In this document: positions 1,938 through 62,025 of the stretch, one piece after another | Position numbering within the stretch: the first letter of the stretch is position 1 | Layout: every line of letters starts with the position of its first letter | Source: Malacoraja senta | Lineage: Eukaryota | Assembly (NCBI GenBank): GCA_038087875.1 | Contig: CM075994.1 | Location: forward strand, 930,001-994,000 | Length of the DNA stretch: 64,000 bases | Reading direction: 5' to 3' | Position numbers and translations under genes: made by a program | Notes under the pieces: generated by a model | Database searches by the model: none | Told to the model about the DNA's origin: nothing | Seen by the model: only the letters and a program-made list of their open reading frames with translations

Positions 1938-3412
1938 ACTGCATACCTGCTCCAACCTCATCTACTGCATGTGTAGGAAGGAACTGCAGATGCTGGTTTA
2001 CGCCGAAGATAGCCACAAAATGCTGGAGTAACGCGGCGGGACAGGCAGCATCTGCGGATAGAAAGAATGGGTGACGTTTCGGGTCGAGAGCCTTCTTCAG
2101 ACTGAGAGACAGTGGAAGGGGACACGCAGAGATATCAAAAGGAAAGGTGTGAAAACGAGACATCAAATGGGACGCTGTTACCGTAAAATACGATAGAACT
2201 TTACTAATGCCAGGAGGGAAAGTATTCTGCTAACAGTCATTAAAAAAAACCAAGATACATTAAATTAAAGTGACGAATGGGAAGGTTTGGGGATGTGCAA
2301 AGATTTGGGAAGGGGGGTGGGGGGTGAAGTGGTATTCTGATCAAGGGAAAAGTAGAATGGACCATTGTTAGCTCGGAGAAGTGGACAACGAAGCAAAGAG
2401 AGATAAATATTTAATCAAAGGGACAGTCAGACTGGTCGGGGAATTAGGATGGGATGGAGAGAGTGGAAAAGCAAGGGTCACTTGGAGTTAGAGAAGTCAA
2501 GCTGGGGTGTAAGCTGCCGAAGCGAAACACGAGGTGCTGTTGCTCCTGTTTGCGCTGGCCCTCACTCTGACAATGGTGGAGGCCCCTGACAGAATGGGTA
2601 GGTGTGCGAATGGGAGGAGGAGTAAAAGTGTTTGGCCACCGGGAGATATCCCAGTTCCCGATGTGGCCTCCTGGACATCGGCAACACAATGTGTAGACTG
2701 GGCGAAAATTTTGCCGAACACTTGCGCTCGGTCCGCCAAGACCTGCTGGATCTCCCGGTTTTTAACCATTCCCTTCCCGTTACCACACTGGCCTTTTTTA
2801 AAATCCTGGGCCTCCTTCACTGCCAGAGTGAGGTCACACGCAAACTGGAGGAACAGCATCTTACAACCCAACGGTATGAACATTGAATACTCCGATTTTA
2901 GGTAACCTTTCACCAACCTCCCGCAAAGCCCATTCCATTCTACCCCACACCACCCCTCTCTCTTCGCACGCCTCCCCGCTCCTGTTCCCCGCACAGCACT
3001 AAAGACCTGGGTTCGACTCTGACTTTGGTGTGTCTGTGTGTAGTATGAACATTCTGCCTGTGACTGCGTGGGTTTTATCCAGGTGCTCCGGATTGCTCCC
3101 ACACTCCACTGGTCTGATTGCAAAAGTTAGAGGAAACCTTGGGCACCCGGAGATACCCACGATGTCACGGGGACAACGGCCAATCTCAGGGCAGACTGCA
3201 CCCGTAGTCAGAATCGAACCCGGGTCTCTGGCAGCAACTCTACCGCTGCGCCACCGTGCCGACCCGCTGCGTTACTCCAGCGTTTTGTGTTTATCTTTCC
3301 TCCATTTGCTGCCTGACCCGCTGAGTTACATCCAGCGTTTTGTATATCTATTTTTCTTTCCAGGGCCGCTGCCTGACCCGCTGAGTCACCCCGGCGTTTC
3401 TTGTCCTTTCAG
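1938..3412 (+). mobile_element. Composite Penelope-like remnant filling intron 2
   Basis: Plus-strand GIY-YIG remnant TCSNLIYC / RCGLLDIGNTMCRLGENFAEHLRSVRQ...LQPNGMNIEYSDFR*, split by a minus-strand Penelope 3' end (about 1971-2645). Then two inverted SINE heads (about 3000-3260) and three tandem terminal pieces up to the acceptor. Confidence 0.75.
2071..2104 (-). ncRNA. Penelope-type minimal hammerhead ribozyme motif
   Basis: Minus strand reads cagt-CTGAAGA-aggctctcgaccc-GAAAC-GTC-ac. Paralogues at 14410-14443, 22937-22970 (mutated) and 39544-39577; deleted in unit 5. Confidence 0.6.
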
Positions 3413-4614: not shown

Positions 4615-4905
4615 CCTCAAGTTTCAGGGATAGTTTCTTCCCAACTGTTATCAAGAAACTGAAGCATCCTACCACAACCAGTGAGCAGTGCTAAATTACT
4701 ATCTACCTCATTGGTGACCGTCGGACTATTTTTTACCGGAATTTACTGGATTAACCTTGCACTAAACGTTATTCCCTTATCGTGTATCTGTACAATGTGG
4801 ACGGCTCCATTGTAATCATGTATTGTCTTTCCGCTGACTGGTTAGCACGCAACAAAAAGTTTTAACTGTACCTCCGTTAACGTGACAACAAACAAAACGA
4901 AATTA
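4615..4905 (+). mobile_element. Rex1-like 3' end in the presumed GPCR 3' UTR
   Basis: FRDSFFPTVIKKL-like end of the RT ORF plus 3' UTR, present in all units. Confidence 0.6.
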
Positions 4906-4958
4906 TTCCTACTGTATGCGTCTACTAGGGTGACAGATAGACTCTTTTATTGTTCCAG

Positions 4959-4969
4959 ATTAAAATAAA
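4959..4969 (+). terminator. Candidate GPCR polyadenylation signal
   Basis: Overlapping ATTAAA/AATAAA about 760 nt after the stop codon. AATAAA is lost in copy 3. Confidence 0.35.
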
Positions 4970-4980
4970 ACATGAATTGG

Positions 4981-6137
4981 ATCATCATTGAATCATTGAA
5001 CCATTGAATCATTCAACCATTGAATCATTGAATCATTGAACCATTGAATCATTCAACCATTCAGCCAGTGAACCATTGAATCATTGAACCAGTCAGCCAT
5101 TGAGTCATTGAGCCATTCAATCATTGAACCATTGAGCCATTGAATCATTGAACCAATGAGCCATTGAACCATTGAACTATTGAGCCTTTGAATCATTGAA
5201 CCATTGAATCATTCAACCATTCAACCATTATAACCATATAACCATATAACAATTACAGCACGGAAACAGGCCATCTCGGCCCTTGTAGTCCGTGCCGAAC
5301 ACTTACTCTCACCTAGTCGCATCTACCTGCACTCAGACCATAAGCATGGAACCATTGAAACAATGAATCATTGAATCGTTGAACGATTGAGCCATTGAAT
5401 CATTGAACCATTGAACGATTGAGCCATTGAGCCATTGAACCATTGAATCATTGAGCCATTTGTCCTTTAATCTGGTTGATCACAAACTCTGTTCTCATTG
5501 GGTCCATTCGAAGCGGGGAGAAATCTCGTCTGCACGGAGTAAATAACATTAATTGAATCATTGAACCACAGAACCATTGAATCATTGAGCCAATGAATCA
5601 TTGGATCATTGAATCATTGAACCGTTGAACCGTTGAGCCATTGAGCCATTGAACCATTGAACCATTGAATCACCGAATCATTGAACCATCGAATCATTGA
5701 ACAATTGTATCATTGAGCCATCAAAACATCGAACCATTGAACCATTGAATCGTGGAATCATTAAATCATTGAACCATTGAGCCATTGAACCATTGAACCA
5801 TTGAGCCATTGAATCATTGAATCATTGAATCATTGAACCGTTGAACCGTTGAGCCATTGAGCCATTGAACCGTTGAGCCATTGAACGATGGAGCCATTGA
5901 ATCATTGAATCATTGAATCATTGAATCATTGAGTCATTGAGCCATTGAATCATTGAATCATTGAATCATTGAACCATTGAGCCATTGAGCCATTGAATCA
6001 TGGAGCCATTGAACCATTGAGCCATTGAATCGTTGAACCATAGAGCCATTGAGCCATTTAGCCATTAAGCCATTGAACCATTGAGCCATTGAATCGTTGA
6101 ACCATAGAGCCATTGAACCAATGAACCATTGAGCCAT
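4981..6137. repeat. 8-bp minisatellite (CATTGAAT/CATTGAAC/CATTGAGC)n, unit 1
   Basis: Variant octamers, interrupted by a retroposon tail and a duplicated spacer of about 90 bp. Confidence 0.95.
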
Positions 6138-6279
6138 TTGTTCTTTACAAACTTTGTTCCCATTGGGTCCATTCGAAGCGGGGAGAAATCTCGTCTGCAC
6201 GGAGTAAATAACATAAACTGCAGTCACTGAATTCACTGTTTCACAACGGGACACGAAATGGAATATTATTTCAATGTTT

Positions 6280-6884
6280 CTATAGAGAATAGACACAGGA
6301 GTGGGCCATTCGGCCCGTCGAAATAGCACCGCCATTCAATGTGACCATGGCTGTTCATCCCCAATCAGTATTCCGTTCCTGCCTTCTCACCATATCCCCT
6401 GACTCCGCTATCTTTAAGAGCCCGATCTAGCTTTCTCTTGACAGTATCCAGAGATCCAGCCTCCACAGGCAGAGAATTCCACAGAATCACAGCTCTCTGT
6501 GTGAAAAGGTGTTTTCTCATCTCCGTTCTAAATGGCTTACCCCTCAGTCTTAAACTGTGGCCCCTGGTTCTGGACTCCCCCAACATGTGTCCTGCATCTA
6601 GCATGTCCAAACCCTTAATAATCTTATATATTTCAATAAGATCCCCTCTCATCTAAATTCCAGAGTATACAAGCCCAGCCGCACCATTCTCTCAGCATAT
6701 GACAGTCCCGCCATCCCAAGAATTAACCTTGTATACCTGTGCTGCATTCCCTCAATAGCAAGAATTTCCTTCCTCAAATAAGGGGACCAAAACTGCTCAC
6801 AATACTCCAGGTGTCGTCTCACTAGTGCCCTGTACCACTGCAGAAGGACCTCTTTGCTCATATACTCGACTCCTCTTGTTATGA
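6280..6884 (-). mobile_element. Old CR1 LINE 3' fragment
   Basis: Minus-strand RRHLEYCEQFWSPYLRKEILAIE...RTRGHSLRLRGKPFRTE. Paralogues at 18558-19162, 27192-27797 and 43623-44227. Confidence 0.9.
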
Positions 6885-9672: not shown

Positions 9673-12646
9673 TAAACAAGTAGAACGCCAGCGGAGTCGC
9701 GGGGCGGCAGAACACCAGCGCCCACCAAGCCAGCTCGGCCGACCGGAAGCACCAACAGACGGCGACGTGAAAGGAAGCACCGCCGGGGACGCAGAGGTGG
9801 GTTAAAGGCCATGTTAGAGCTAGACCCACACAGGCTAGCGATTCCTAGCCTTTTCCTCGCCAACGTGCGCTCACTGGCAAACAAAATGGACGAACTCCGG
9901 CTAAGGATCACCTCCCACAACTGGATCAAAGACTGCAGCAACTTGATCCTCACGGAAACTTGGCTCAACACCGACGTTCCTGACAGCGCCATCCAGCTAA
10001 CGGGGCGGCATTTACTCCGAGCGGACAGGACAATAGACTCTGGTAAGACCAGAGGTGGAGGTCTGTGCATTTATGTAAATAAAGCATGGTGCACGGACAC
10101 CACCATCATCGAGAGTCACTGCTCAGCTAACCTAGAGTTCCTCTTGGTTAGATGCAGACCGTTCTATCTGCCCAGAGAGTTTACCTCCACTGTTGTGACT
10201 GCAGCCTATATTCCTCCTGATCCTAATGCCAAGCTTGTAATGAAAGATCTGCATACTGCCATTAGCAAACAACAGACTCACAACCCCGAGGCAGCCTTCA
10301 TTGTTGCGGGTGACTTCAATCACTCCAACCTGAAGACTGTACTCCCCAAATTCCACCAACATGTCTCCTTCGCCACTAGAGAAGACAAGACACTGGACAA
10401 AGTCTACACCAACATGACTGAAGCTCACAAAGCCGTCCCCCTCCCCCACCTTCGACAGTCTGATCACCTCCCATTGTTCCTGCTCCCAAAGTACTCCCCA
10501 CTCATCAGACAGGTTAAACCCACTGTGAGGACAGTTAAAGTCTGGTCAGAGGATGCGGACTCCACACTTCAGCAGTGTTTTGGAAACACTGACTGGATGG
10601 CGTTTGCAGCCCAGGCCACCCATGACTCCCACACGGACATTGACTCCTATACATCCTCTGTTCTGGACTGTATCAACTCCACCATCAACAGTGTCACCTC
10701 CCTCAAACGGGTGACCATATTCCCGAATCAGAAGCCATGGATGAACGGCGAGGTGAGGCTACTGCTGAAAGCACGGGACACCGCTTTTAGGTCAGGCGAT
10801 GCCCGAGCCTATAGTTAATTCAGGGCTAACCTGAAGAAGGGCATAAAGAAGGCCAAGCACTGCCATAAGCTCAGGATTGAGGAGCACTTCAACAACAACT
10901 CCGACCCCCGACGCATGTGGCAAGGCATCCAGGCCATCACGGACTTTAGACCCACCAACACCACCCCCACATCCAGCAACGCCTCCTTCCTTGAGGAGCT
11001 TAACCACTTCTATGGCCGCTTCAATAAGGACAATCGGCAGTTGGCCATCAAGGCGGTGCTCCCTGCCGATCACCAGCCCCTCTCACTCACCCCATACGAC
11101 GTGTACGTGGCACTGAGTAGGACTAATGCACGTAAGGCTGCTGGCCCCGACGGCATCCCCGGGCGCGTCCTCAGGGCCTGTGCGGCGCAGCTGACAGACG
11201 TCTGGACTGACATCTTCAACCTGTCACTTACCCAAGCAGTTGTGCCCACGTGCCTTAAATCCACCTCCATCGTGCCGGTGCCAAAACACTCCACTGCGGC
11301 AAGCCTCAACGACTTCCGCCCAGTTGCACTTACTCCCATCATCGCCAAGTGCTTCGAGAGGCTGGTCCGGGCACACCTCAAAGGCTGCCTACCCCCCACA
11401 TTGGATCCCTATCAGTTTGCCTACCGCAAGAACAGGAGCACAGAGGATGCCATCTCAACGGCACTTCACTCCGCCCTCTCCCACCGCGACAACAGAGACA
11501 CTTACGTAAGAATGCTGTTCATCGATTACAGCTCAGCATTCAACACCATCATACCCTCTAAACTGATCACCAAACTCGGTGACCTGGGCATCGACCCCTC
11601 CCTCTGCAACTGGATACTGGACTTTCTAACCAACAGACCCCAGTCTGTTAGGTTAGACAAGCACACCTCTTCAACCCTCATCCTGAACACCGGCGTTCCA
11701 CAGGGCTGTGTGCTGAGCCCCCTCCTCTACTCCCTCTTCACCTACGACTGCACACCTGTACATGGTGCTAACACCATCATCAAGTATGCAGATGATACAA
11801 CGGTGATTGGCCTCATCAGCAACAACGATAAGTCGGCCTATAGGGAGGAGGTCCAGCTCCTAGCAGCATGGTGCACTGACAACAACCTGGCCCTTAACTC
11901 CAAGAAGACCAAGGAGCTCATTGTAGACTTCAGGAAGTCTAGGGGAGGCACGCACACCCCCATCCACATTAACGGGACGGAGGTGGAACGTGTTTCCAGC
12001 TTCAGGTTCCTGGGGGTCAACATCTCCGATGACCTCCCTTGGACCAACAATACCTCAACTCTGGTCAAGAAGGCTCACCAGCGTTTCTTCTTCCTGCGAA
12101 GACTAAAGAAGGTCCATCTGTCTCCTCAGATTCTGGTGAACTTCTACCGCTGCACCATCGAGAGCATCCTTACCAACTGTATCACAGTATGGTATGGCAA
12201 CTGCTCTGTCTCCGACCGGAAAGCACTGCAGAGGGTGGTGAAAATTGCCCAACGCATCACCGGTTCCTCACTCCCCACCATTGAGTCTGTCCAAAGTAAG
12301 CGTTGTCTGCGAAGGGCGCTCAGCATCGCCAAGGACTGCTCTCACCCCAACCACAGACTGTTTACCCTCCTACCATCCGCGAGGCGCTACAGGTCTCTCC
12401 GTTGCCGGACCAGCAGGTCCAGGGACAGCTACTTCCCTGCGGCGGTTACACTACTCAACACTGTACCTCGGTGACTGCCAATCACCCCCCCCCCCCCGGA
12501 CACTCCTCCCACCAGGATTTATTAGATGCATTTATTTACTGCTCATATTTATGTCGCTCTTCCAGGGAGATGCTAACTGCATTTCGTTGTCTCTGTACTG
12601 TACACTGCACAATGACAATAAAGTTGAATCTGAATCTGAATCTGAA
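9651..12646 (+). mobile_element. Rex1/Babar LINE (APE endonuclease + RT), premature stop
   Basis: LANVRSLANKMDEL, LTETWL, AGDFN, SDH, GVPQG, YADD motifs. TAA at 10816-10818 splits the ORF. (GAATCT)n tail. Confidence 0.92.
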
Positions 12647-30004: not shown

Positions 30005-33001
30005 TACACTAACTAAACTAAACTAGTAAACTAGTAGAACGCCAGCGGAGTCGCGGGGCGGCAGAACACCAGCGCCCACCAAGCCAGCTCGGCCGACCGG
30101 AAGCACCAACAGACGGCGACGTGAACGGAAGCACCGCCGGGGACGCAGAGGTGGGTTAAAGGCCAGGTTAGAGCTAGTCCCACACAGGCTAGCGACTCCT
30201 AGCCATTTCCTCGCCAACGTGCGCTCACTGGCAAACAAAATGGACGAACTCCGGCTAAGGATCACCTCCCACAACTGGATCAAAGACTGCAGCATCTTGA
30301 TCCTCACTGAAACTTGGCTCAACACCGACGTTCCTGACAGCGCCATCCAGCTATCGGGGCGGCATTTACTCCGAGCGGACAGGACAATAGACTCCGGTAA
30401 GACCAGAGATGGAGGTCTGTGCATTTATGTAAACAAAGCATGGTGCACGGACACCACCATCATCGAGAGTCACAGCTCAGCTAACCTAGAGTTCCTCTTG
30501 GTTAGATGCAGACCATTCTATCTGCCCAGACAGTTTACCTCCACTGTTGTGACTGCAGCCTATATTCCTCCTGATGCTAATGCCAAGCTTGCAATGAAAG
30601 ATCTGCATACTGCCATTAGCAAACAACAGACTCACAACCCCGAGGCAGACTTCATTGTTGCGGGTGACTTCAATCACTCCAACCTGAAGACTGTACTCCC
30701 CAAATTCCACCAACATGTCTCCTTCGCCACTAGAGAAGACAAGACACTGGACAAAGTCTACACCAACATGGCTGAAGCTTACAAAGCCGTCCCCCTCCCC
30801 CACCTTGGACAGTCTGATCACCTCTCATTGTTCCTGCTCCCAAAGTACTCCCCACTCATCAGACGGGTTAAACCCACTGTGAGGACAGTTAAAGTCTGGT
30901 CAGAGGATGCGGACTCCACACTTCAGCAGTGTTTTGGAAACACTGACTGGAAGGCGTTTGCAGCCCAGGGCACCCTTGACTCCCACACGGACATTGACTC
31001 CTATACATCCTCTGTTCTGGACTTTATAAACTCCACCATCAACAGTGTCACCTCCCTCAAACGGGTGACCATATTCCCGAATCAGAAGCCATGGATGAAC
31101 AGCGAGGTCAGGCTACTGCTGAAAGCACGGGACACCGCTTTCAGGTCAGGCGATGCCCGAGCCTATAGTTCATCCAGGGCTAACCTGAAGAGGGGCATAA
31201 AGAAGGCCAAGCACTGCCATAAGCTCAGGATTGAGGAGCACTTCAACAACAACTCCGACCCCCGACGCATGTGGCAAGGCATCCAGGCCATCACGGACTT
31301 TAGACCCACCAACAGCACCCCCACATCCAGCAACGCCTCCTTCCTTGAGGAGCTTAACCACTTCTATGGCCGCTTCAATAGGGACAATCGGCAGTTGGCC
31401 ATCAAGGCGGTGCTCCCTGCCGATCACCAGCCCCTCTCACTCACCCCCTACGACGTGTACGTGGCACTGAGTAGGACTAATGCACGTAAGGCTGCTGGCC
31501 CTGACGGCATCCCCGGGCGCGTCCTCAGGGCCTGTGCTGCGCAGCTGACAGACGTCTGGACTGACATCTTCAACCTGTCACTTGCCCAAGCAGTTGTGCC
31601 CACGTGCCTTAAATCCACCTCCATCGTGCCGGTGTCAAAACACTCCACTGCGGCAAGCCTCAACGACTTCCGCCCAGTTGCACTTACTCCCATCATCGCC
31701 AATTGCTTCGAGAGGCTGGTCCTGGCACACCTCAAAGGCTGCCTACCCCCCACATTGGATCCCTATCAGTTTGCCTACCGCAAGAACAGGAGTACGGAGG
31801 ATGCCATCTCAACGGCACTTCACTCCGCGCTCTCCCACCTCGACAACAGAGACACTTACGTAAGAATGCTGTTCATCGATTACAGCTCAGCATTCAACAC
31901 CATCATACCCTCTAAACTGATCACCAAACTCGGTGACCTGGGCATCGATCCCTCCCTCTGCAACTGGATACTGGACTTTCTAACCAACAGACCCCAGTCT
32001 GTTAGGTTAGACAAGCGCACCTCTTCAACCCTCACCCTGAACACCGGCGTTCCACATGGCTGTGTGCTGAGCCCCCTCCTCTACTCCCTCTTCACCTACG
32101 ACTGCACACCTGTACATGGTATTAACACCATCATCAAGTATGCAGATTATACAACGGTGATTTGCCTCATCAGCAACAACGATGAGTCGTCCTATAGGGA
32201 GGAGGTCCAGCTCGTAGCAGCATGGTGCGCTGACAACAACCTGGCCCTTAACTCCAAGAAGACCAAGGAGCTAATTGTAGACTTCAGGAAGTCTAGGGGC
32301 GGCACGCACACCCCCATCCACATTAACGGGACGGAGGTGGAACGTGTTTCCAGCTTCAGGTTCCTGGGGGTCAACATCTCCGATGACCTCTCTTGGACCA
32401 ACAATACCTCAACTCTGGTCAACAAGCCTCACCAGCGTTTCTTTTTCCTGCGGAGACTAAAGAAGGTCCATCTGTCTCCTCAGATTCTGGTGAACTTCTA
32501 CCGCTGCACCATCGAGAGCATCCTTACCAACTGCATCACAGTATGGTATAGCAACTGCTCTGTCTCGGACCGGAAAGCACTGCAGAGGGTGGTGAAAATT
32601 GCCCAACGCATCACCGGTTGCTCACTCCCCACCATTGAGTCTGTCCAAAGCAAGCGATGTCTGCGAAGGGCGCTCAGCATCGCCAAGGACTGCTCTCACC
32701 CCAACCACAGACTGTTTACCCTCCTACCATCCGGGAGGCGCTACAGGTCTCTCCGTTGCCGGACCAGCAGGTCCAGGGACAGATTCTTCCCTGCGGCGGT
32801 TACACTACTCAACACTGTACCTCGGTGACTGCCAAACACCCCCCCCCCCCCCCGGACACTCCTCCCACCAGGATTTATTATATTTATTTATTTACTGCTC
32901 ATATTTATGTCGCTCTTCTAGGGAGATGCTAACTGCATTTCGTTGTCTCTGTACTGTACACTGCACAATGACAATAAAGTTGAATCTGAATCTGAATCTG
33001 A
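30005..33001 (+). mobile_element. Rex1/Babar LINE with uninterrupted 869-aa ORF (30219-32828)
   Basis: APE + RT ORF is open, but YADD has become YADY and GVPQG has become GVPHG. TGAT at both ends. Confidence 0.93.
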
Positions 33002-33194: not shown

Positions 33195-36100
33195 ATGGGA
33201 ACGTACGCACTTCACATCGAGATCTTCTACCCGATTATTGCAGTCATTGGTGTGCCTGGTAAGTCATTTCATTTAATGTAGCGGTGGTTTTCTCTCCGTG
33301 CCTCCCTCCCCCACCCTAGTTGTCGTATTAGTTTCACTGTCGTCTTATTGAGTTTCACTCTCTGTATAACTCGTTATCACCTAGCCCTCATCCAACAATG
33401 GGCCATCATGGGCTCTCCATTTCATTGATCATCGTTACTTTATGCATAGCTTTCATTCATTTGCTCTTTATATCTCTCCATCACCGACTATATCTCTCGT
33501 TTTCTTTTCTCCTTACTGGTCTGAAATAAAGGACTCGACCCGAAATGTCACGTATTCCTTCGCTCCGGAGATGCTGTCTGACCCACTGAGTTAATCCAGC
33601 ATTTGTGTGCCTCTTAGCAGAATGACGCCTGCTTTAGCGGGAATCAGCTACAAGGAGAAGTCGGACAGACTTGGATTGTTTTCTCTGGAATACCGGAGGT
33701 TAAATGGAGACCTTCTATGTCTCTTCATTGTTTTTGGCTGCAGTTGATTTATCTGCATCCATTGTGCCAGTCAGTGGTCAGAGTCAGGGCAACGATGAGA
33801 TTATTCACTTTTGTGCTCTTGGTTTCAATGCTAAGGGAAGACGGATTGCTTCTAACATTGGGCAGGTAGTCGCTGGTCTGCGCAGGCCCGACGGGCCGAA
33901 AGGCCTGTTTTCACTCTTATTGTCTAAAATTAGGTGTAGCACCGTGGCGCAGATGGAGAGTTGCTGCCTCACATCGCAAAAGACCTGGGTTCAGTCCTGA
34001 CCTCGGGTATTGTGTATGGCCTGGATGGAGTGAATGTGAAGAACCCGTCAAGTCTACTGTAACATTCAGTCATGGCTGATCTATCTTCCCCTGATCACCC
34101 CCATTCTCCTGCCTTTTCCCCCTATCCTTTAACAACCTTATTGATCAAGAGCCTGTCAATCTCCGGTTAACAAATACCCAAATGACTTGGATCGTATTCA
34201 GTTCAGTTGAAATTAGTTCATTATCACGTGTACCGAGGTACAGTGAAAAGCTTTTGTTGCGTGCTAACCAGTCAGCGGAAATCGCGATTACAATCGAGCC
34301 ATTTCCAGTGTACAGATACATGATAAGGGAATGACGTTCAGTGCAAGGTAAAGCCATCAAAGTCCGGTCACACATGGTCCGAGTGTCACCAATGAGGTAG
34401 AAAGTAGTTCAGGACTGCTGAAATTATTGTTACATTTATTGCCGTTCCCTACAGATGCAGTCCCCTACGCCTCTATCCCATTTCCCTCTTGCTTCTCGCC
34501 GTTGTGTGTTTCCTTACAGCCAACTTGATGTCCTTGGTGATCCTGTTTCGAGGAAAGTGCTGTCTCTCCAAAGACATCACCTGCTACATGATGGCCATGG
34601 CGATGGGTGATCTCTTGGTGTTGGTCTTCAACGTCATAGTCAGCCAGATAGTCAGGTACTGTAAAGAATCTATAACGAGGCATCGTTACTTTACTATCTT
34701 TATTCATACTGGAGCATTACATATTGCACTAGCTGTACGTGGTCTGTCACAGGAACTAGAGAGCGATCTGTGGGTGGGGAGGTTGTAGTTATACTTGTGA
34801 TATGGGGAGTGGTTAGTAGGTATGAGGTCACTATGTTAAAGGCACATGCATATATCATCTACATCCTTCCCCTCCGAATCGACAGGCAAATACAATGGTG
34901 ACAGGGCGACCACGGCTCATGCGCTAGGATGGTTAAACAAAATCGCCATAGCGGACAGGCGGTTTCGCAAGACGTCCCGACCGGGTTCGCGTCTCGCCAT
35001 CCTCCCTTCCGGCAGGAGGAAGAGGCACCGATGGGGACAGACGAACCTGAAAGGGGGAAACGGGAGGAGACGGAGGAGACCGCGGCACCAAACCCGGAGG
35101 TGATGCGGGATCAGGAGCGGGCAGTGCGCGGGCAGGCGAGCGAGGACTAGTCGGAGCAGGGTGGGACGGAAGGAGTTGAGGAGGTGCAGAACGTTGCATG
35201 TTAGGAAGGACGGGCAGAGCAACGCCCGGACGCGAAGCCGGCAGTGGGGGAGCAAAGGGATCCGCCGCAGGAGGACGCGGCTCGTTGAAGAGCCAAAGGT
35301 GCTGGCGGGACCGTCGGTAAATGGCTCCCGCATGGTCGACGAGATAAGACCTGGGCGACCCCGCAGAGCCGACGACGGTGGCGAGCTTGGAGTGACCGGA
35401 AGTGGTCTGCATACGGACAACTTGACCGGGGAAGAGGCGCGGCAGCGGGTGGCAGGACCTGTCATGGGAACGCTTTTGGACATTGTGCCTGAATGCAATG
35501 CGTTTCTGAACCGCCGCAGGTGGGAGGACGGAGGGTATGAGGGAGCGCTGGGCCACCGGGAGCGGGAGCCTGGTAGCGCGAGACATGAGCCGCTGAGCAG
35601 GGGAACCCATGGCAGAGTCGCGGAAAATGTTGCGGAGGTTGAGGAGGGCCAGATGGAAGTCGGAGTTAATGCCACCACACTGTTCCAGCAGGTGCTTCGC
35701 GCTGCGGACGGCACGCTCGGCCAGACCGTTGCTTTGCGGGTACTCCGGGCTGCTGGTGAAATGGCGGAAGTTCCAACTGGAAGCGAACGCTTTAAACTCG
35801 GAGCTCGTGAACTGGCTGCCATTGTCCGATTGCAGGCTTGCCGGGGGGCCAAAAGTGCCAAAATGAGGGTACAACCTGTCGATGATGGCCGAAGAGGTTA
35901 GGGAGTGCAGCCGGTCGACCACAAACCAGCTGGAGTAGGAGTCAACGAGAACCAGGAAGTGTTTGCCTCGCCACTCGAAAATGTCGGCGGCGAGCGCCAT
36001 CCAGGGCAGTTCGGGCGCGGGCTGCTGCAGAAGCGGCTGACGCTGCTGGTGGGGGGCGAGGCTGTTGCAGGTGGAACACGAGGAGACCCTCTCCCGGATG

Positions 36101-39100
36101 TATTTGGCCATGTCCGGCCAATAGAACTGGCTCCTGGCGAGAGACACGGTGGCTTCGGCCCCAGGATGACCGCGGTGAGCGACTTGAAAATAGTGGTCGT
36201 GCAGCGCCGCGGGCACGACCACCTTGTGACCCTTCACCACCACGCCGTCGTGTAGTACGAGCTCATCACGGACCAGGAAGTAGGGCACGGCACCAGCCGG
36301 CAGTGCGGAACGACGGTCGGGCCAGCCCCGCTGGATGACGGCAGACAGCTGTTGCAGGGCCGGGTCATTGGTAGTGTGTTCAACCAGGGACTTCATCTGT
36401 TGTGAAGGGACGATGTCCATTTGGAGCACCAATAGATCAGACATCTCATATGGGTGGCGAACGGTGGACGACAGCGGGGCGCGAGACAACGTGTCGGCCA
36501 CGAACATGTCCTTGCCCTTACGATAAACCACCGTGAACGTGAAGCGCTGGAGCTGCAGCATCATGCGCTGTAGGCGTGATGAGGCCACATGGATCGACTT
36601 GTTGAGGATGGTGACAAGTGGCTGATGGTCAGTTTCAATGGTGAAAGTGTTGCCCACGATGTAGTCTCTGAATTTGGAGCAGGCAAACACCACGGCCAGT
36701 AGCTCCTTCTCAATCTGCGCGTAGTGCTGTTCGGTGACGGTCATGGTGCGGGATGCGAAGGAGACAGGCAGCTGTAGGCCGTCATGGACCTGGAGACAGG
36801 CGGCACCGAGTCCGAACTGAGAGGCGTCGCAGGTGAGGACAATGGGACGCTGCAGGTCAAAAAACTTGAGCGTGGGGGTGCTGATCAGCTTGGACTTAAG
36901 AATGTCGAATGCTTTCTGATGGTGGGGGAACCAAGCCCAGGACGTGTCCTTTTTTATCAAATCCCTCAGGGGAGCGCTGAGCTCCCTGAGGTCGGGGATG
37001 AACTTCCCCAGGTAGTTTACCAAGCCCAGGAAGCGTTGTAGGCCTGCCACATTAGTAGGAGAAGGCATCCCTGAAATGGCAGCCGTTTTTTGCGGGTCTG
37101 GCTTTAACCCCTCGGCGGTGAATACATGTCCAACATAGGTGACCTCCGGGACGCGGAATCGGCACTTCTTGGGGTTAAGTTTCAAGTTGATTTGCCGGGC
37201 CCGGTCCAGGACCTGGCGGAGGTTGACATCGTGTTCGGCAACGTCCTTACCGTAAACGAGGATGTCGTCAACAATGATGGCGCACGGTAGACCTGAAAAC
37301 AACTGCTCCATTGTCCGCTGGAATACCTCGCTGGCAGAGTTGATTCCGAATGGCATTCGGAGGAACCGAAACCTCCCGTAGGGGGTGGCGAAAGTTGTCA
37401 AAATGGACGACTGCTCGTCCAGTGGTATCTGCCAGAAGGAGCTTTTGGCATCGAGGACAGAAAAAACCGTTGCCGGACCAACCTGTGCAGCGACTTCTTC
37501 TACCGTTCTCATGGGGTAGTGCGGGCGTCTAATGGCCAGGTTGAGGTCTTTGGGGTTGATGCAGATGCGTATCTCGCTCATGTCCTTTTTCGCAGCAACA
37601 ACCATGGAAGAGACCCACCTGGTGGGCTCGATGACCACCTTTAGGATGCCCATTTGTACCATACTGTGTAGTGTCGACTCCACTCTGTCCTTCATGGCGA
37701 AGGCGACACGGTGAGGAGCATTGACCACTGGATCGATCTTACGGTCCACTACAATCTTGTAGCTGCAGGGTAGTTTGCCTAGCTCATCATCAAAGCGGTC
37801 GGGATAATCGGCCAGCGGGTCCATGAGGGCCTGCACCTGGTGGATGTCACGGTGGAAGGATACTAGTCCCATTTCCTGGCATGCCCGGATGCCCAGCAGG
37901 GGAATGCATTTTTGATCGAGGAGATAGAAGGTGAGGGGCCGAGAGGTCTCTAGTATCTTACAGCGTAGCGTGGCCTTGCCCACAGGAGTAAGAATCTCCC
38001 CCCCCCCGTAGGCATGCAAGGTTGAGTTCTGAGAAAAAATCTGCTCATTAGTCCTTATCTGTTTGAAGACAGATGTTGACATTACGTTCGCAACCGCCCC
38101 CGTGTCAATCTTAGCAGTGAAGGTCGAGTTGTTCACAGTGACTCGCACAGAAGGGTCCGTTATCATAGCAGGTGCGCCCAACACAGTATACAAGCTGTTC
38201 TCCCCCTGAGAGGAGTCGGATGCAGAAACAGACTGTTCATCGAAATAGCACTGGGAGCTGAGCTCACTATCAGTTTGTAGAAGGTTGTTTAAATTTCCCC
38301 TCGGAGCAGCGACAGGCTTCCCACGGGAGCGCCGCAGCAAAATGGTTCAATTTCTTGCAGAAAGTACACGTTTTACCCAAGGCAGGGCACACATTGTATT
38401 GATGAGTGGTGAAGTTGCAATTAGGGCACCTTTCCCGGGTACCTCCCCCGGGAGCAGTAACGAACCCCGGGGCACGTCCCCCTCGAGCAGCGAGCGACCC
38501 CGGGGGCCGCGAGCGGGGCGTGTTCATCAGATGACTGGGAGTGCTGGCACAGTTAATCGCCTGTTCAGCCGGTGACACCGCCGAGGTGACAGCTTCAGCT
38601 AAGCGAGTGGCGTGCATCGCATCGTTAAAAGTCAGATCCGGCTTGCGCAGAAGTTCGGCCCTGAGCTTATCATCGCGGAGACCGTAAACTAGAAGGTCCC
38701 TGATAATCTCATCGGGGGTCCACGTGTGGAGGCGGCAGCGCCTGGCCAGGTGGCGCAGCGCAGAGACATAGTTCTCAGCATTTTCCCCAGGTAGCTGACG
38801 CCGCGCGAACAGTTTAAAACGTTCTAAGATGCAGTTTGTTGGGATATCACAAATAGCATCAAACTTAGCCACCAGACATACCGGGTCCCGAGCTGATTCT
38901 CCAGCAGCGTAGACGAAGAAGTCAGAGCGAGTCAGGGCCTCGGGACCAGCCAAGTTGAGAAGCAGAGAGGCTTTGAGATCAGCGGTGGCGGCAGGATGAG
39001 CGATCGTGACATAGTGTTCAAAGTCACGTTTGAATACGTCCCATCGAAGGGCGATGTCTAAATCGAAAACGAGCACATCAGGCTTACGGGCAGAAGAGGC

Positions 39101-41674
39101 CATAACAAAGAAATGGGAGGGCGGGGGAAACAAAAAAACTGGGACAGAATTAAATGATAAACCGATAAACAGGAGGCGCAAGGTAAGTGGTTTGACACCA
39201 TGTAAAAATCTATAACGAGGCATCGTTACTTTACTATCTTTATTCATACTGGAGCATTACATATTGCACTAGCTGTACGTGGTCTGTCACAGGAACTAGA
39301 GAGCGATCTGTGTTTGGGGAGGTTGTAGTTATACTTGTGATATGGGGAGTGGTTAGTAGGTATGAGGTCACTATGTTAAAGGCACATGCATATATCATCT
39401 ACAGGTACGTACTGGATACCTGCTCCAACCTCATCTACTGCATATGTAGGAAGGAACTGCAGATGCTGGTTTACGCCGAAGATAGCCACAAAATGCTTGA
39501 GTAACGCGGCGGGACAGGCAGCATCTGCGGATAGAAAGAATGGGTGACGTTTCGGATCGAGAGCCTTCTTCAGACTGAGAGACAGTGGAAGGGGACACGC
39601 AGAGATATGAAAAGGAAAGGTGTGAAAACGAGACATCAAATGGGACGCTGTTACCCTACAATACGATAGAACTTTACTAATCCCAGGAGGGAAAGTATTA
39701 TGCTAACAGTCATAAAAAAAACAAGGTACATTAAATTAAAGTGACGAATGGAAAGGTTTGGGGATGTGCAAAGATTTGGGAAGGGGGGTGGGTGTGAAGT
39801 GGTATTCTGATCAAGGGAAATGTAGAATGGACAATTGTTAGCTGGGGGAAGTGGACAACGAAGCAAAGAGAGATAAATATTTAATCAAAGGGACAGTCAG
39901 ACTGGTCGGGGAATTAGGATGGGATGGAGAGAGAGGAAAAGCAATGGTCACTTGGAGTTAGAGAAGTCAAGCTGGGGTGTAAGCTGCCCAAGCGAAACAC
40001 GAGGTGCTGTTGCTCCTGTTTGCGCTGGGCCTCACTCTGACAATGGAGGAGGCCCCTGACAGAATGGGTAGGTGTGCGAATGGGAGGAGGAGTAAAAGTG
40101 TTTGGCCACCGGGAGATATCCCAGTTCCCGATGTGGCCTCCTGGACGTCGGCAAGACAATGTGTAGACTGGGCGAAAATTTCGCCGAACACTTGCGCTCG
40201 GTCCGCCAAGACCTGCTGGATCTCCCGGTTCTTAACCATTCCCTTCCCGTTACCACACTGACCTTTTTTTTTTTAAATCCTGGGCCTCCTTCACTGCCAG
40301 AATGAGGCCACACGCAAACTGGAGGAACAGCATCTTACAACCCAACGGTATGAACATTGAATACTCCGATTTTAGGTAACCCTTCACCAACCTCCCCCAA
40401 AGCCCATTCCATTCTACCCCATACCACCCCTCTCTCTTCCCACGCCTCCCCGCTCCTGTTCCCCGCACAGCACTAAAGACCTGGGTTCGACTCTGACCTT
40501 GGTGTGTCTGTGTGTAGTATGAACATTCTGCATGTGACTGCGTGGGTTTTATCCAGTTGCTCCGGATTGCTCCCACACTCCACTGGTCTGATTGCAAAAG
40601 TTAGAGGAAACCTTGGGCACCCGGAGAATACCCACGATGTCACGGGGACAACGGCCAATCTCCGGGCAGACTGCACCCGTAGTCAGAATCGAACCCGGGA
40701 CTCTGACAGCAACTCTACCGCTGCGCCACCGTGCCGACCCGTTGCGTTACTCCAGCGTTTTGTGTTTATCTTTCCTCCATTTGTTGCCTGACCCGCTGAG
40801 CTACTCCAGCGTTTTGTATCTATTTTTCTTTCCAGGGCCGCTGCCTGACCCGCTGAGTCACCCCGGCGTTTCTTGTCCTTTCGGGTACCACTTCCCCGGG
40901 TCTCCGCTCCGCTACACGCCCGTGTGCCGGCTCAGTGCCTACGTGCAAGGCTTCAGTTTCCAGCTCAATACCTGGTTCACCGTGTCCTTCACGTGTGACC
41001 GTTTCGTGGCTATCTGTTGCCGGAAGCTGAGGCGCACGTATTGCACCGAGCGAACCGCGGCGATGGTGTTAGCGGCGGTAGGAATGGTCAGTGTGTTGAC
41101 GAACGCGCCCTTGCCTCTCCGCTACCGGCCCTGTCACACCGTTCACCGTGTAGCCTACGGTTGCTGCCCTGTGCCGGGTCACCTGGAATCCCCACTGTGG
41201 TCCGCCCATCGCTGGGCCTCCAACCTCCTCAACACCTTCCTCCCCATCCCCGCCCTGCTGCTGCTGAGTTCGCTGACCGCCAGACACATCCTGTGGGCTA
41301 GCAGGGCCCGACTGGCCCTGAAGGGCCCTCTCCAGGGGGGCGGGGGCAACGACCCCGAGGTCAGGAGCCGGAGGGCTTCGGTCGCCCTGCTGTTCGCCGT
41401 CTCCGGGAGCTTCGTGGCGCTGGCCGTTCCCATCACGGTGATCCACGCCTGGGTGGGGGTGAGCGGGACGGTGATGTTCCGCGGTCCCCGCTCGCTGTAC
41501 GCGGCCGTGCAAGTCGCGATGCTGCTGAAGTGCCTCGGTTCCTGCACAAACACCTGTGTGTACGCCCTCACCCAGAGCAGGTTCAGAGCGCAGTTGAAAG
41601 CCCTGCTCACACCCCCCTTCGCTGCTCTGTGCATAGGTGTTAAGGTGAGGGGGAAAGATGTACGAGGAACCTGA
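33195..41674 (+). CDS. GPR139/GPR142-like GPCR, copy 4 (Gypsy in intron 2 donor, acceptor GG)
   Basis: Exons 33195-33258, 34520-34655 and 40885-41674 are open. Functional status uncertain. Confidence 0.68.
34660..34863 (-). repeat. Gypsy 3' LTR (204 bp)
   Basis: Differs from the other LTR by 2 substitutions and 1 indel; PPT adjacent. Confidence 0.95.
34933..38340 (-). CDS. pol: Gypsy Pol (protease, RT, RNase H, integrase)
   Basis: KIDTGA; LDAKSSFWQIP, RMPFG, IVDD; CDAS, YAQIEKE, TDHQPL; HRGH...CSTC, VDSYS, SDNGSQF, NGLAERAV. Confidence 0.93.
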   Translation of the reverse strand: MLRRSRGKPVAAPRGNLNNLLQTDSELSSQCYFDEQSVSASDSSQGENSLYTVLGAPAMITDPSVRVTVNNSTFTAKIDTGAVANVMSTSVFKQIRTNEQIFSQNSTLHAYGGGEILTPVGKATLRCKILETSRPLTFYLLDQKCIPLLGIRACQEMGLVSFHRDIHQVQALMDPLADYPDRFDDELGKLPCSYKIVVDRKIDPVVNAPHRVAFAMKDRVESTLHSMVQMGILKVVIEPTRWVSSMVVAAKKDMSEIRICINPKDLNLAIRRPHYPMRTVEEVAAQVGPATVFSVLDAKSSFWQIPLDEQSSILTTFATPYGRFRFLRMPFGINSASEVFQRTMEQLFSGLPCAIIVDDILVYGKDVAEHDVNLRQVLDRARQINLKLNPKKCRFRVPEVTYVGHVFTAEGLKPDPQKTAAISGMPSPTNVAGLQRFLGLVNYLGKFIPDLRELSAPLRDLIKKDTSWAWFPHHQKAFDILKSKLISTPTLKFFDLQRPIVLTCDASQFGLGAACLQVHDGLQLPVSFASRTMTVTEQHYAQIEKELLAVVFACSKFRDYIVGNTFTIETDHQPLVTILNKSIHVASSRLQRMMLQLQRFTFTVVYRKGKDMFVADTLSRAPLSSTVRHPYEMSDLLVLQMDIVPSQQMKSLVEHTTNDPALQQLSAVIQRGWPDRRSALPAGAVPYFLVRDELVLHDGVVVKGHKVVVPAALHDHYFQVAHRGHPGAEATVSLARSQFYWPDMAKYIRERVSSCSTCNSLAPHQQRQPLLQQPAPELPWMALAADIFEWRGKHFLVLVDSYSSWFVVDRLHSLTSSAIIDRLYPHFGTFGPPASLQSDNGSQFTSSEFKAFASSWNFRHFTSSPEYPQSNGLAERAVRSAKHLLEQCGGINSDFHLALLNLRNIFRDSAMGSPAQRLMSRATRLPLPVAQRSLIPSVLPPAAVQKRIAFRHNVQKRSHDRSCHPLPRLFPGQVVRMQTTSGHSKLATVVGSAGSPRSYLVDHAGAIYRRSRQHLWLFNEPRPPAADPFAPPLPASRPGVALPVLPNMQRSAPPQLLPSHPAPTSPRSPARALPAPDPASPPGLVPRSPPSPPVSPFQVRLSPSVPLPPAGREDGETRTRSGRLAKPPVRYGDFV
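38270..39103 (-). CDS. gag: Gypsy Gag (likely start MASSARKP at 39103)
   Basis: ERFKLFARRQLPGE...LRHLARRC, IRDLLVYGL; zinc knuckles CPNC...H...C and CTFCKKLNH, the second lacking its last Cys at the frameshift. Confidence 0.85.
   Translation of the reverse strand: MASSARKPDVLVFDLDIALRWDVFKRDFEHYVTIAHPAATADLKASLLLNLAGPEALTRSDFFVYAAGESARDPVCLVAKFDAICDIPTNCILERFKLFARRQLPGENAENYVSALRHLARRCRLHTWTPDEIIRDLLVYGLRDDKLRAELLRKPDLTFNDAMHATRLAEAVTSAVSPAEQAINCASTPSHLMNTPRSRPPGSLAARGGRAPGFVTAPGGGTRERCPNCNFTTHQYNVCPALGKTCTFCKKLNHFAAALPWEACRCSEGKFKQPSTN
39201..39403 (-). repeat. Gypsy 5' LTR (203 bp)
   Basis: Direct repeat of 34660-34863; PBS adjacent. Confidence 0.95.
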
Positions 41675-46077: not shown

Positions 46078-49000
46078 TACACTAACTAAACTAAACTAGT
46101 AAACAAGTAGAACGCCAGCGGAGTCGCGGGGCGGCAGAACACCAGCGCCCACCAAGCCAGCTCGGCCGACCGGAAGCACCAACAGACGGCGACGTGAACG
46201 GAAGCACCGCCGGGGACGCAGAAGTGGGTTAAAGGCCAGGTTAGAGCTAGTCCCACACAGGCTAGCGATTCCTAGCCTTTTCCTCGCCAACGTGCGCTCA
46301 CTGGCAAACAAAATGGACGAACTCCGGCTAAGGATCACCTCCCACAACTGGATCAAAGACTGCAGCATCTTGATCCTCACTGAAACTTGGCTCAACACCG
46401 ACGTCCTGACAGCGCCATCCAGCTAACGGGGCGGCATTTACTCCGAGCGGACAGGACAATAGACTCCGGTAAGACCAGAGGTGGAGGTCTGTGCATTTAT
46501 GTAAACCAAGCATGGTGCACGGACACCACCATCATCGAGAGTCACTGCTCAGCTAACCTAGAGTTCCTCTTGGTTAGATGCAGACCGTTCTATCTGCCCA
46601 GAGAGTTTACCTCCACTGTTGTGACTGCAGCCTATATTCCTCCTGATGCTAATGCCAAACTTGCAATGAAAGATCTGCATACTGCCATTAGCAAACAACA
46701 GACTCACAACCCCGAGGCAGCCTTCGTTGTTGCGGGTGACTTCAATCACTCCAACCTGAAGACTGTACTCCCCAAATTCCACCAACATGTCTCCTTCGCC
46801 ACTAGAGAAGACAAGACACTGGACAAAGTCTACACCAACATGGCTGAAGCTTACAAAGCCGTCCCACTCCCCCACCTTGGACAGTCTGATCACCTCTCAT
46901 TGTTCCTGCTCCCAAAGTACTCCCCACTCATCAGACGGGTTAAACCCACTGTGAGGAGAGTTAAAGTCTGGTCAGAGGATGCGGACTCCACACTTCAGCA
47001 GTGTTTTGGAAACACTGACTGGAAGGCGTTTGCAGCCCAGGCCACCCTTGACTCCCACACGGACATTGACTCCTATACATCCTCTGTTCTGGACTTTATA
47101 AACTCCACCATCAACATAGAAACATAGAAACATAGAAATTAGGTGCGCCATTCGGCCCTTCGAGCCTGCACCGCCATTCAATATGATCATGGCTGATCAT
47201 CCAACTCAGTATCCCGTACCTGCCTTCTCTCCATACCCTCTGATCCCTTTAGCCACAAGGGCCACATCTAGCTCCCTCTTAAATATAGCCAATGAACTGG
47301 CCTCGACTACCCTCTGTGGCAGAGAGTTCCAGAGATTCACCACTCTCTGTGTGAAAAAAGTTCTTCTCATCTCGGTTTTAAAGGATTTCCCCCTTATCCT
47401 TAAGCTGTGACCCCTTGTCCTGGACTTCCCCAACATCGGGAGCAATCTTCCTGCATCTAGCCTGTCCAACCCCTTAAGAATTTTGTAAGTTCTATAAGAT
47501 CCCCTCTCAATCTCCTAATTCTAGAGAGTATAAACCAAGTCTATCCAGTCTTTCTTCATAGACAGTCCTGACATCCCAGGAATCAGTCTGGTCAACAGTG
47601 TCACCTCCCTCAAACGGGTGACCATATTCCCGAATCAGAAGCCATGGATGAACAGCGAGGTCAGGCTACTGCTGAAAGCACGGGACACCGCTTTCAGGTC
47701 AGGCGATGCCCGAGCCTATAGCTTCATCCAGGGCGAACCTGAAGAAGGGCATAAAGAAGGCCAAGCACTGCCATAAGCTCAGGATTGAGGAGCACTTCAA
47801 CAACAACTCCGACCCCCGACGCATGTGTGGCAAGGCATCCAGGCCATCACGGACTTTAGACCCACCAACACCACCCCACATCCAGCAACGCCTCCTTCCT
47901 TGAGGAGCTTAACCACTTCTATGGCCGCTTTGACAGGGACAATCGGCAGTTGGCCATCAAGGCGGTGCTCACTGCCGATCACCAGCCCCTCTCACTCACC
48001 CCCTACGACGTGTACGTGGCACTGAGTAGGACTACTGCTGGCCCTGACGGCATCCCCGGGCGCGTCCTCAGGGCCTGTGCTGCGCAGCTGACAGACGTCT
48101 GGACTGACATCTTCAACCTGTCACTTGCCCAAGCAGTTGTGCCCACGTGCCTTAAATCCACCTCCATCGTGCCGGTGCCAAAACACTCCACTGCGGCAAG
48201 CCTCAACGGACTTCCGCCCAGTTGCACTTACTCCCATCATCGCCAAGTGCTTCGAGAGGCTGGTGCTGGCACACCTCAAAGGCTTCCTACCCCCCACATT
48301 GGATCCCTATCAGTTTGCCTACCGCAAGAACAGGAGTACGGAGGATGCCATCTCAACGGCACTTCACTCCGCCCTCTCCCACCTCGACAACAGAGACACT
48401 TACGTAAGAATGCTGTTCATGGATTACAGCTCAGCATTCAACACCATCATACCCTCTAAACTGATCACCAAACTCGGTGACCTGGGCATCGACCCCTCCC
48501 TCTGCAACTGGATACTGGACTTTCTAACCAACAGACCCCAGTCTGTTAGGTTAGACAAGCACACCTCTTCAACCCTCACCCTGAACACCGGCGCTTCCAC
48601 AGGGCTATGTGCTGAGCCCCCTCCTCTACTGCCTCTTCACCTACGAATGCACACCTGTACATGGTACTAACACCATCATCAAGTATGCAGATGATACAAC
48701 GGTGATTGGCCTCATCAGCAACAACGATGAGTCGGCCTAAGGGGAGGAGGTCCAGCTCCTAGCAGCATGGTGCACTGACAACAACCTGGCCCTTAACTCC
48801 AAGAAGACCAAGGAGCTCATTGTAGACTTCAGGAAGTCTAGGGGCGGCACGCACACCCCCATCCACATTAACGGGACGGAGGTGGAACGTGTTTCTAGCT
48901 TCAGGTTCCTGGGGGTCAACATCTCCGATGACCTCTCTTGGACCAACAATACCTCAACTCTGGTCAAGAAGGCTCACCAGCGTTTCTTCTTCCTGAGGAG

Positions 49001-49546
49001 ACTAAAGAAGGTCCATCTGTCTCCTCAGATTCTGGTGAACTTCTACCGCTGCACCATCGAGAGCATCCTTACTAACTGTATCACAGTATGGTATCGCAAC
49101 TGCTCTGTCTCCGACCGGAAAGCACTTGCAGAGGGTGGTGAAAATTGCCATACGCATCACCGGTTGCTCACTCCCCACCATTGAGTCTGTCCAAAGCAAG
49201 CGTTGTCTGCGAAGGGCACTCAGCATCGCCAAGGACTGCTCTCACCCCAACCACAGACTGTTTACCCTCCTACCATCCGGGAGGCGCTACAGGTCTCTCC
49301 GTTGCCGAACCAGCAGGTCCAGGAACAGCTTCTTCCCTGCGGCGGTTACACTACTCAACACTGTACCTCGGTGACTGCCAATCACCCCCCCCCCCCCCGG
49401 ACACTCCTCCCACCAGGATTTATTAGATTTATTTATTTACTGCTCATATTTATGTCGCTCTTCTAGGGAGATGCTAACTGCATTTCGTTGTCTCTGTACT
49501 GTACACTGCACAATGACAATAAAGTTGAATCTGAATCTGAATCTGA
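46078..49546 (+). mobile_element. Rex1/Babar LINE, multiply frameshifted, CR1 inserted
   Basis: Colinear with the other Rex1 copies; many small indels. Confidence 0.92.
47117..47591 (-). mobile_element. Young CR1 3' fragment nested in Rex1
   Basis: TCAACA duplicated at 47111 and 47592; (TTTCTATG)n tail; closely similar to the 3' end of 55128-56298. Confidence 0.9.
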
Positions 49547-61119: not shown

Positions 61120-61720
<601 letters not shown>

Positions 61721-61737
61721 CCAATGCATCCTTACTG

Positions 61738-62025
61738 TGGCAGAGACCCAGGTTCCATCCTGACCTCGGGTGCTGTATATATGTGTGGAATTTGTACTTT
61801 CTCCCCGTGACTGCGTGGGTTTCCTCCAGGTGCTCTGGTTTCACCCCCATCCCAAAGTCGTTTGGGTTTGTAGGTTAATCGGCCCTCTGTAAATTCCCTC
61901 CAGTGAGTAGGGAATGGATGAGGAAGTGGGATAATGTGGAACTAGTGTGTGAATCTGTGATCGATGATCGGCGTGGACTCGGTGGGCCGAAGGGCCTGTT
62001 TTCCTGCTGTACCTTCCAAACTAAT
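61738..62025 (+). mobile_element. tRNA-derived SINE
   Basis: Similar to 58655-58965; head-to-head with the preceding SINE. Confidence 0.75.

Follow-up and report, generated by a model that had tools for sequence, protein, structure and literature searches.

In a stretch of 64,000 nucleotides of the Malacoraja senta genome, referred to below as the window, a Gypsy retrotransposon interrupts the donor of intron 2 in one copy of a tandemly repeated receptor gene. Two questions are raised by this locus: whether the element is removed by splicing, possibly through a recursive splice site, and how the intron whose donor was hit was formed. The reading that we favor, with a probability of about 0.65, is that the AG|GT formed at the end of the Gypsy element in the donor of copy 4 is likely non-working, and that intron 2 itself likely comes from an earlier insertion, that of a Penelope-like element.

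The receptor array and its Gypsy insertion

In the window, a class A GPCR gene with three exons is repeated five times in tandem; its closest annotated proteins are skate "GPR139-like" receptors (89–91% identity). Close copies of exon 2 occur 17 times in the genome, 16 of them on the contig of the window. The model of intron 2 is based on an alignment of proteins, including annotated skate ones that join at the same codon without a gap: the spliced model of copy 2 aligns gap-free with the proteins P0001 and P0002 across the exon 2/exon 3 join, and in this model intron 2 is in phase 2, within Arg67. The intron-2 acceptors of copies 1 to 5 are at positions 3412, 15747, 24274, 40884 and 52547. 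The coordinates of the features are collected in Table 1.

Table 1. Features of copy 4 and of the repeats around it (positions in the window)
Feature	Position	Strand	Basis or remark
LINE copies	9676-12474, 30030-32828, 46384-49184		single 932-aa frame in the unit preceding copy 4
Exon 1 (coding), copy 4, GPR139-like class A GPCR	33195..33258	+	spliced-model alignment to skate proteins
Exon 2, copy 4	34520..34655	+	sequence comparison of array copies
Left target-site duplication (TSD) GGTAC	34655..34659	+	overlaps the exon 2 donor, now CAG|GTACTG
3' LTR of Gypsy, 204 nt	34660..34863	-	polypurine tract directly inside
pol frame, 1137 aa stop to stop	34933..38346	-	PF00078, PF17917, PF17919, PF17921, PF00665
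Motif-passing AG|GT site in the antisense element	37001..37013	+	cut after 37011
gag-like frame, 328 aa stop to stop	38270..39256	-	position and Cys/His-rich end; frame differs from pol
Motif-passing AG|GT site in the antisense element	38780..38792	+	cut after 38790, 13/17 pyrimidines
Near-consensus donor AAG|GTAAGT, predicted cryptic competitor	39180..39188	+	adjoins the primer-binding site
5' LTR of Gypsy, 203 nt	39201..39403	-	primer-binding site directly inside
LTR end A and right TSD GGTAC (39404-39408), proposed AG|GT site	39403..39408	+	original donor CAG|GTACGT rebuilt
First piece of sense, 5'-truncated Penelope-like element	39418..39445	+	start of GIY-YIG region; profile 67/70-97
Antisense insertion splitting the sense element	39444..40121	-	largely same Penelope-like family
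Sense element continued, collinear with first piece	40122..40415	+	profile 99-415
Three tandem tail units of the Penelope-like family	40736..40876	+
Right copy of the 8-nt direct repeat	40881..40888	+	TCAG|GTAC in 14/17 array copies, GG for AG in copies 3, 4, 5
Exon 3, copy 4, open frame of 262 aa (7tm_1)	40885..41674	+	Pfam and reading frame

The 17-copy array lies at about 726000–983000 of C18, plus C1041, and one half of it is inverted. Several copies carry stops or frameshifts (birth and death); that of copy 1 is a frameshift within exon 3. There are at least 140 GPR139-like loci genome-wide (3226 first-look candidates), a large family expansion of which our literature search found no description. 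Exon 1 is preceded in three repeat units by a LINE (with endonuclease, RT and an ALKBH8_N-type tail domain), and each repeat unit has long tandem repeats with an 8-nt period (about 4900–6300 and equivalents, 61276–61800).

The element in copy 4 is a Gypsy (Ty3-type) LTR retrotransposon, with direct LTRs, TG...CA ends, a 5-nt TSD and, in pol, the domain order RT, RNase H, integrase, which is the Gypsy order; the primer-binding site and the polypurine tract are both present. Its two LTRs are identical except for one indel and a pair of adjacent substitutions. The 328-aa frame, which is in the place expected for gag, has no Pfam match; its position and its Cys/His-rich end suggest that it is gag. 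Perfect 5-bp TSDs flank 12 of 15 other paired or solo copies, the 40 best matches of a genome search with the LTR are all 100% identical, and the family is, judging from its genomic copies, young and abundant. Its end motif occurs 725 times in the genome, 327 times internally, which leaves about 398 host-flanked ends, a number that includes some segmental duplicates and variant internal ends. Many copies have internal deletions (1.2–4.5 kb between identical LTRs in L015, L044, L049 and L145), some have a variant primer-binding site, and L144 has a tandem arrangement of the three-LTR type, with the same internal sequence before both LTRs in the stretch.

In the array, the element is present in copy 4 only, and the other 16 copies have an empty junction. 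It is antisense to the gene, with pol on the minus strand, and its poly(A) signal is on that strand as well: AATAAA occurs in both LTRs (34699 and 39239) and, between 34600 and 41000, on the minus strand only. Premature polyadenylation on the plus strand was considered and rejected, as there is no AATAAA on that strand between 34600 and 41000, where two ATTAAA are found.

Precise removal and the AG|GT at 39404

A sequence-only reading of this locus had described a TSD straddling the exon 2/intron 2 junction, a donor kept on the left, an AG|GT on the right that is at once acceptor and rebuilt donor, an antisense element with its poly(A) signal on the other strand, and a weak pyrimidine tract; all of this is borne out by the letters. 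The TSD starts with the last base of exon 2 (34655); the left junction reads GTCAG (34651–34655) then GTACTG (34656–34661), the right one TACAG (39400–39404) then GTACGT (39405–39410), and 10 of the 17 bases in the tract are pyrimidines. Removal of 34656–39404 as a GT–AG intron does restore the empty site, since the product equals the junction of the empty copies.

This removability follows automatically from the TG...CA ends of the element and a TSD starting with GGT: any insertion whose TSD begins with the G at position -1 of a G|GT donor is bound to be exactly removable. More generally, 40 of the 1024 possible pentamer TSDs (GGTNN, AGGTN, NAGGT and NNAGG) put any TG...CA element in an exact GT–AG frame on one strand, and a removable frame is expected in 3.3–3.9% of cases from base composition. 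In the Gypsy family, right flanks of this class are found at 14 + 2 + 9 = 25 of about 398 ends (6.3% vs 3.5%, P 0.008); these are flank counts, and among the 14 GGT cases both ends were verified in 7 (copy 4 included), one is a tandem without TSD, and both ends were verified for none of the remaining six. The removable geometry is thus an ordinary by-product of insertion, not beyond chance, and the sole remaining coincidence is that the element landed in a donor.

It could be argued that this landing is no coincidence, if the family targets GGTAC or donor-like DNA and a second insertion at this place reflects targeting. GGTAC indeed follows 4 of the about 398 ends, when about 0.3 are expected (P about 0.004, post hoc), and GGT flanks also exceed a uniform expectation (P 0.002–0.005, post hoc). 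However, about 99% of the ends have other flanks, which are diverse among the 100 of 158 that were listed, the element sits in only one of the array's 17 identical target sites, and the TSD is verified for three of the four GGTAC-flanked ends, copy 4 among them, the fourth not being a clean TSD. The earlier suggestion that GGTAC is a preferred target therefore keeps a mild post-hoc enrichment, while a fixed target is ruled out by the diversity of the flanks and by the four occurrences in about 398; targeting as the explanation of this insertion is quite improbable.

The same reading had also raised a potential recursive splice site at 39404. If its AG|GT worked in this way, the Gypsy element would be removed first, and the rebuilt donor would then be used to remove intron 2. 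Several observations are in line with this idea. The empty site is restored exactly, the YAG|GT juxtaposition is present at 39404, there is no other AG within 21 nt upstream, and the rebuilt donor matches the U1 complement at 9 of 11 positions when the left donor, which had 9 before the insertion, is down to 6 (splice-site strength was scored by simple counts, the donor score being the number of matches to a U1-complement consensus). The length of the intron is not an obstacle either, since lariat studies have found recursive sites in short introns too (median 3.4 kb, in the text of PMC10156609).

On the other hand, we applied the minimal motif Y5+ N0-4 YAGGT given in the text of PMC10156609, and 39404, whose longest pyrimidine run is 3, fails it, whereas two sites inside the Gypsy element (37011 and 38790) pass it. 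The pyrimidine runs at the real acceptors of the gene are 10 and 6, and within 34700–40900, 49 of the 215 YAG sites are richer in pyrimidines than 39404. Four donor-like sites inside the element outscore the left donor. No donor-like site with at least 6 of 9 matches, as an RS-exon would need, is found 20–320 nt downstream of 39404. Finally, the second step would have to do without an AG at 40884. With a failed motif, a weakened donor and a downstream acceptor that reads GG, the recursive site is not supported by the sequence, and it is unlikely that the AG|GT at 39404 is a working one.

Beside these sites, the antisense Gypsy element has a predicted cryptic exon (38791–39182), which runs from a good acceptor to a near-consensus donor; the AAG|GTAAGT donor near the primer-binding site also occurs in other copies of the family.

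Contigs from sequencing runs include a joint between 34652 and 39402 (X1, X2 and X5). We rejected this joint as evidence of splicing, as it equals the DNA of an empty paralog: the contigs that have it carry bases other than those of copy 4 at 34561 and 34615, and the contigs of the six sequencing runs cover introns and repeats like DNA. A join of 34655 to 39405 is in fact uninformative, since the 16 empty paralogs give the same join without any splicing. None of the 18 records listed (of which there are 674 more) bridges the junction between exon 2 and the LTR, which is not evidence of absence.

The acceptor of intron 2 in copy 4 reads GG instead of AG (40883–40884), a point on which the sequence-only reading is silent. 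The AG is present in copies 1 and 2, the adjacent copies 3–5 have GG, and the contigs of all four runs compared have A at 40883. Since two copies that lack the Gypsy element share the GG, the change probably predates the insertion. The nearest other AGs available to copy 4 are at 40835, which is out of frame, and at 40857, a weak GAG that would add nine codons; the use of an AG at 40935 would remove 17 codons, including the conserved Cys of TPVC. In addition, exon 2 has two changes private to copy 4, Gly to Cys at 34561 and Met to Leu at 34615, which are in none of the other 16 copies (one partial). The GG acceptor and these two changes suggest that copy 4 is likely already decaying or compromised. 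Exon 3 is open in all three GG copies; such decay would therefore be recent or incomplete, and it may be that copies 3–5 are not dead.

The origin of intron 2

Intron 2 is absent from all 53 loci of the family outside the array that were examined in this genome, 51 of which are continuous and two of which have frameshift-sized gaps. Among 140 matches to a related shark protein, only the array copies and one frameshifted locus begin after the junction. C6178 was considered as a second gene with the intron, and rejected as its gap corresponds to 19 nt for 6 codons. In a quick tree of 70 rows (built without 15 near-identical loci and the frameshifted copy 1), the array falls into one group with skate, sawfish and shark orthologs (support 99); continuous loci of this genome are found in the sister clade, which joins at 100. 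Since the intron state was read in the loci of this genome rather than in the sawfish or shark orthologs, the gain is dated only to after the split from the sister clade. No shark ortholog with its DNA turned up among the metagenome contigs scanned. In contigs of organisms B, C and D the exon sequence continues into intron 2, so the intron is older than the separation of these organisms. The two ends of intron 2 form an 8-nt direct repeat, TCAG|GTAC, which has no counterpart in intron 1. Taken as the duplicated target site, this repeat suggests that intron 2 is likely a gained intron that owes its splice sites to the duplication.

Pieces of a repeat, whose profile was built from 19 of 30 fetched copies, frame the intron almost from one end to the other. 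The first piece begins 13 nt into intron 2 of copy 4 and 8 nt into that of copies 1 and 2; across copies the profile match runs from intron positions 9–14 to 41 and resumes at about 720, after the antisense insert. When the first two pieces are joined and the nested inserts left out, a single profile match is obtained (E 5e-53). The last tail unit, which supplies the pyrimidine tract, stops 8 nt short of the intron end, and the distance from the end of the element to the acceptor is 8 nt in four of the five window copies and 12 nt in copy 5. As in 57 of 88 tail instances, the tail here has no optional 3' extension. Direct repeats of 9–15 nt, read as TSDs of about 9 nt, are found at the ends of 4 of 30 family copies (the longest control repeat is 8 nt). 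As a control, we searched within 300 nt of 45 intron-1 acceptors (15 distinct), and found no match to the element.

The family itself matches Penelope-like elements in its domain content, 5' truncation, tail, TSDs and antisense self-insertion. A GIY-YIG domain is detected in four of four frames from genomic copies, by weak matches (E 2e-4 to 0.02) that do not reach the Pfam cut-off; an RT upstream of it gives a weak match in one of seven fragments (E 0.025), and 12 of 65 longer homologs have both RT and GIY-YIG in one protein. In this family (L114–L143, near position 1475), a donor-like CAG|GTGAGG occurs about 20 nt upstream of the start of the intron-2 match, and the donor of the gene may have formed via microhomology with it.

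An alternative is that intron 2 is older, or arose through a different mechanism (tandem duplication, break repair), and that repeats accumulated in it afterwards until its ends happened to look Penelope-like. The family is common in the genome (one 26-nt motif has 690 exact matches) and inserts into itself, the CAG|GT at both ends of the intron is the common proto-splice context (according to the text of PMC3151243), and the element does not account for a few bases at either end. The tail matches are weak (8–21 bits), about 75 profile positions are unmatched between the 5' piece and the tail, and few of the sampled family copies (4 of 30) have a clear TSD. The three tail units and the antisense insert of the same family indicate repeated insertion, so that the 5' piece and the last tail may stem from different events. 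However, only 13 nt or less at the 5' end and 8–12 nt at the 3' end are left for an earlier intron, the pieces are collinear and in one orientation, none of the control acceptors has the element nearby, and the intron is missing from all outgroup loci. We consider this alternative doubtful, although less so than recursive splicing, and conclude that intron 2 was probably made by the insertion of a Penelope-like retroelement. This supports the earlier idea that, with the Gypsy element, the place from which intron 2 arose was hit a second time: the intron looks gained, by a Penelope-like insertion with an 8-nt duplication.

We propose the following history. A sense, 5'-truncated Penelope-like copy would have inserted at TCAGGTAC, in the long coding exon of the ancestral gene, duplicating these 8 nt. 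The left duplicate would have provided the donor CAG|GTAC and the right one the acceptor TCAG|G, with the pyrimidine tract derived from the T-rich tail; the insert would be spliceable without a change in the protein because duplication and tail supplied the splice sites. Further repeats, now nested in the intron, would then have been inserted, and the gene amplified to 17 copies. The AG of the acceptor changed to GG in copies 3–5, presumably after that, and copy 4 alone received a Gypsy element at its donor. Any transcript of copy 4 is likely to be mis-spliced at cryptic sites regardless of 39404, so that the precise removability of the Gypsy element is probably without effect. We consider it improbable that a Penelope-like-made intron later received a Gypsy zero-length exon which is really used, the element being removed by recursive splicing.

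Comparison with known systems

If the proposed history is true, the locus is an intron gain in a cartilaginous fish in which the donor element, both ends and the duplication can still be read, and Penelope-like elements join the retroelements able to make introns. Vertebrate intron gain is described in the texts of PMC3151243 and PMC12357937 as rare, above all in groups other than teleosts, and the origin of a gained intron can seldom be traced. As for the Gypsy insertion, it shows how often LTR elements land in a precisely removable frame (about 6% of the family, on one strand), and it suggests that the limiting step is splice-site strength, not geometry.

The 39404 site is like recursive sites and zero-length exons in having an intronic YAG|GT that unites acceptor and donor. 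Unlike those described in the text of PMC10156609, it is devoid of the pyrimidine-tract part, and it is in one copy of one array. In a literature search that was short on subscription papers and supplements, we found no paper linking recursive splicing to a TSD, nor any linking Penelope to intron gain, including a vertebrate Penelope-derived intron.

The use of TSD-derived splice sites is an established route to transposon-derived introns, and the classes of introners include LTR (about 12%) and non-LTR (5%) retrotransposons (PMC12130899 and PMC11282704). Like introners, intron 2 would take its splice sites from a TSD, and its insert would be removed without changing the exons. Unlike introners, which make many introns per genome, it corresponds to one gained intron position found here; the Gypsy element also differs from introners in that it lies at an existing donor, so that its precise removal adds no new intron position. 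The word Penelope is absent from the main texts of PMC12130899 and PMC11282704, and Dataset S2 of the former could list such families.

With respect to the inserted element, the likeness is with Penelope-like elements that have a C-terminal GIY-YIG. Their TSDs are 8–10 bp long (PMC3846280), and 5' truncation, an optional tail of 30–40 nt and antisense self-insertion are reported in the texts of PMC8557442 and PMC3846280. The family found here has RT followed by GIY-YIG, heavy 5' truncation, a tail, TSDs and antisense self-insertion as well. Unlike the elements of those two papers, the copy in intron 2 has decayed to a 3' fragment that can no longer code for protein.

Among vertebrate introns, the closest cases that we know from the published texts are introns 3 and 5 of notothenioid slc26a2 (PMC12357937) and the introns of MC2R, MC5R, P2Y and CHRM3 in teleosts with compact genomes (PMC3151243). 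The former are, like intron 2, lineage-specific introns whose ends match one repeat and whose middle holds another, but they are in a teleost and are assigned to unclassified putative transposons, whereas the candidate here is a retroelement with RT and GIY-YIG in a cartilaginous fish, with an 8-nt duplication holding AG|GT. The latter share with intron 2 a phase 2 position, a MAG|R proto-splice site and a class A GPCR as host gene; the source of their ends is untraceable according to PMC3151243, whereas here both ends match the element. Intron 2 would thus represent a known kind of event, in which the donor class and the lineage are apparently new.
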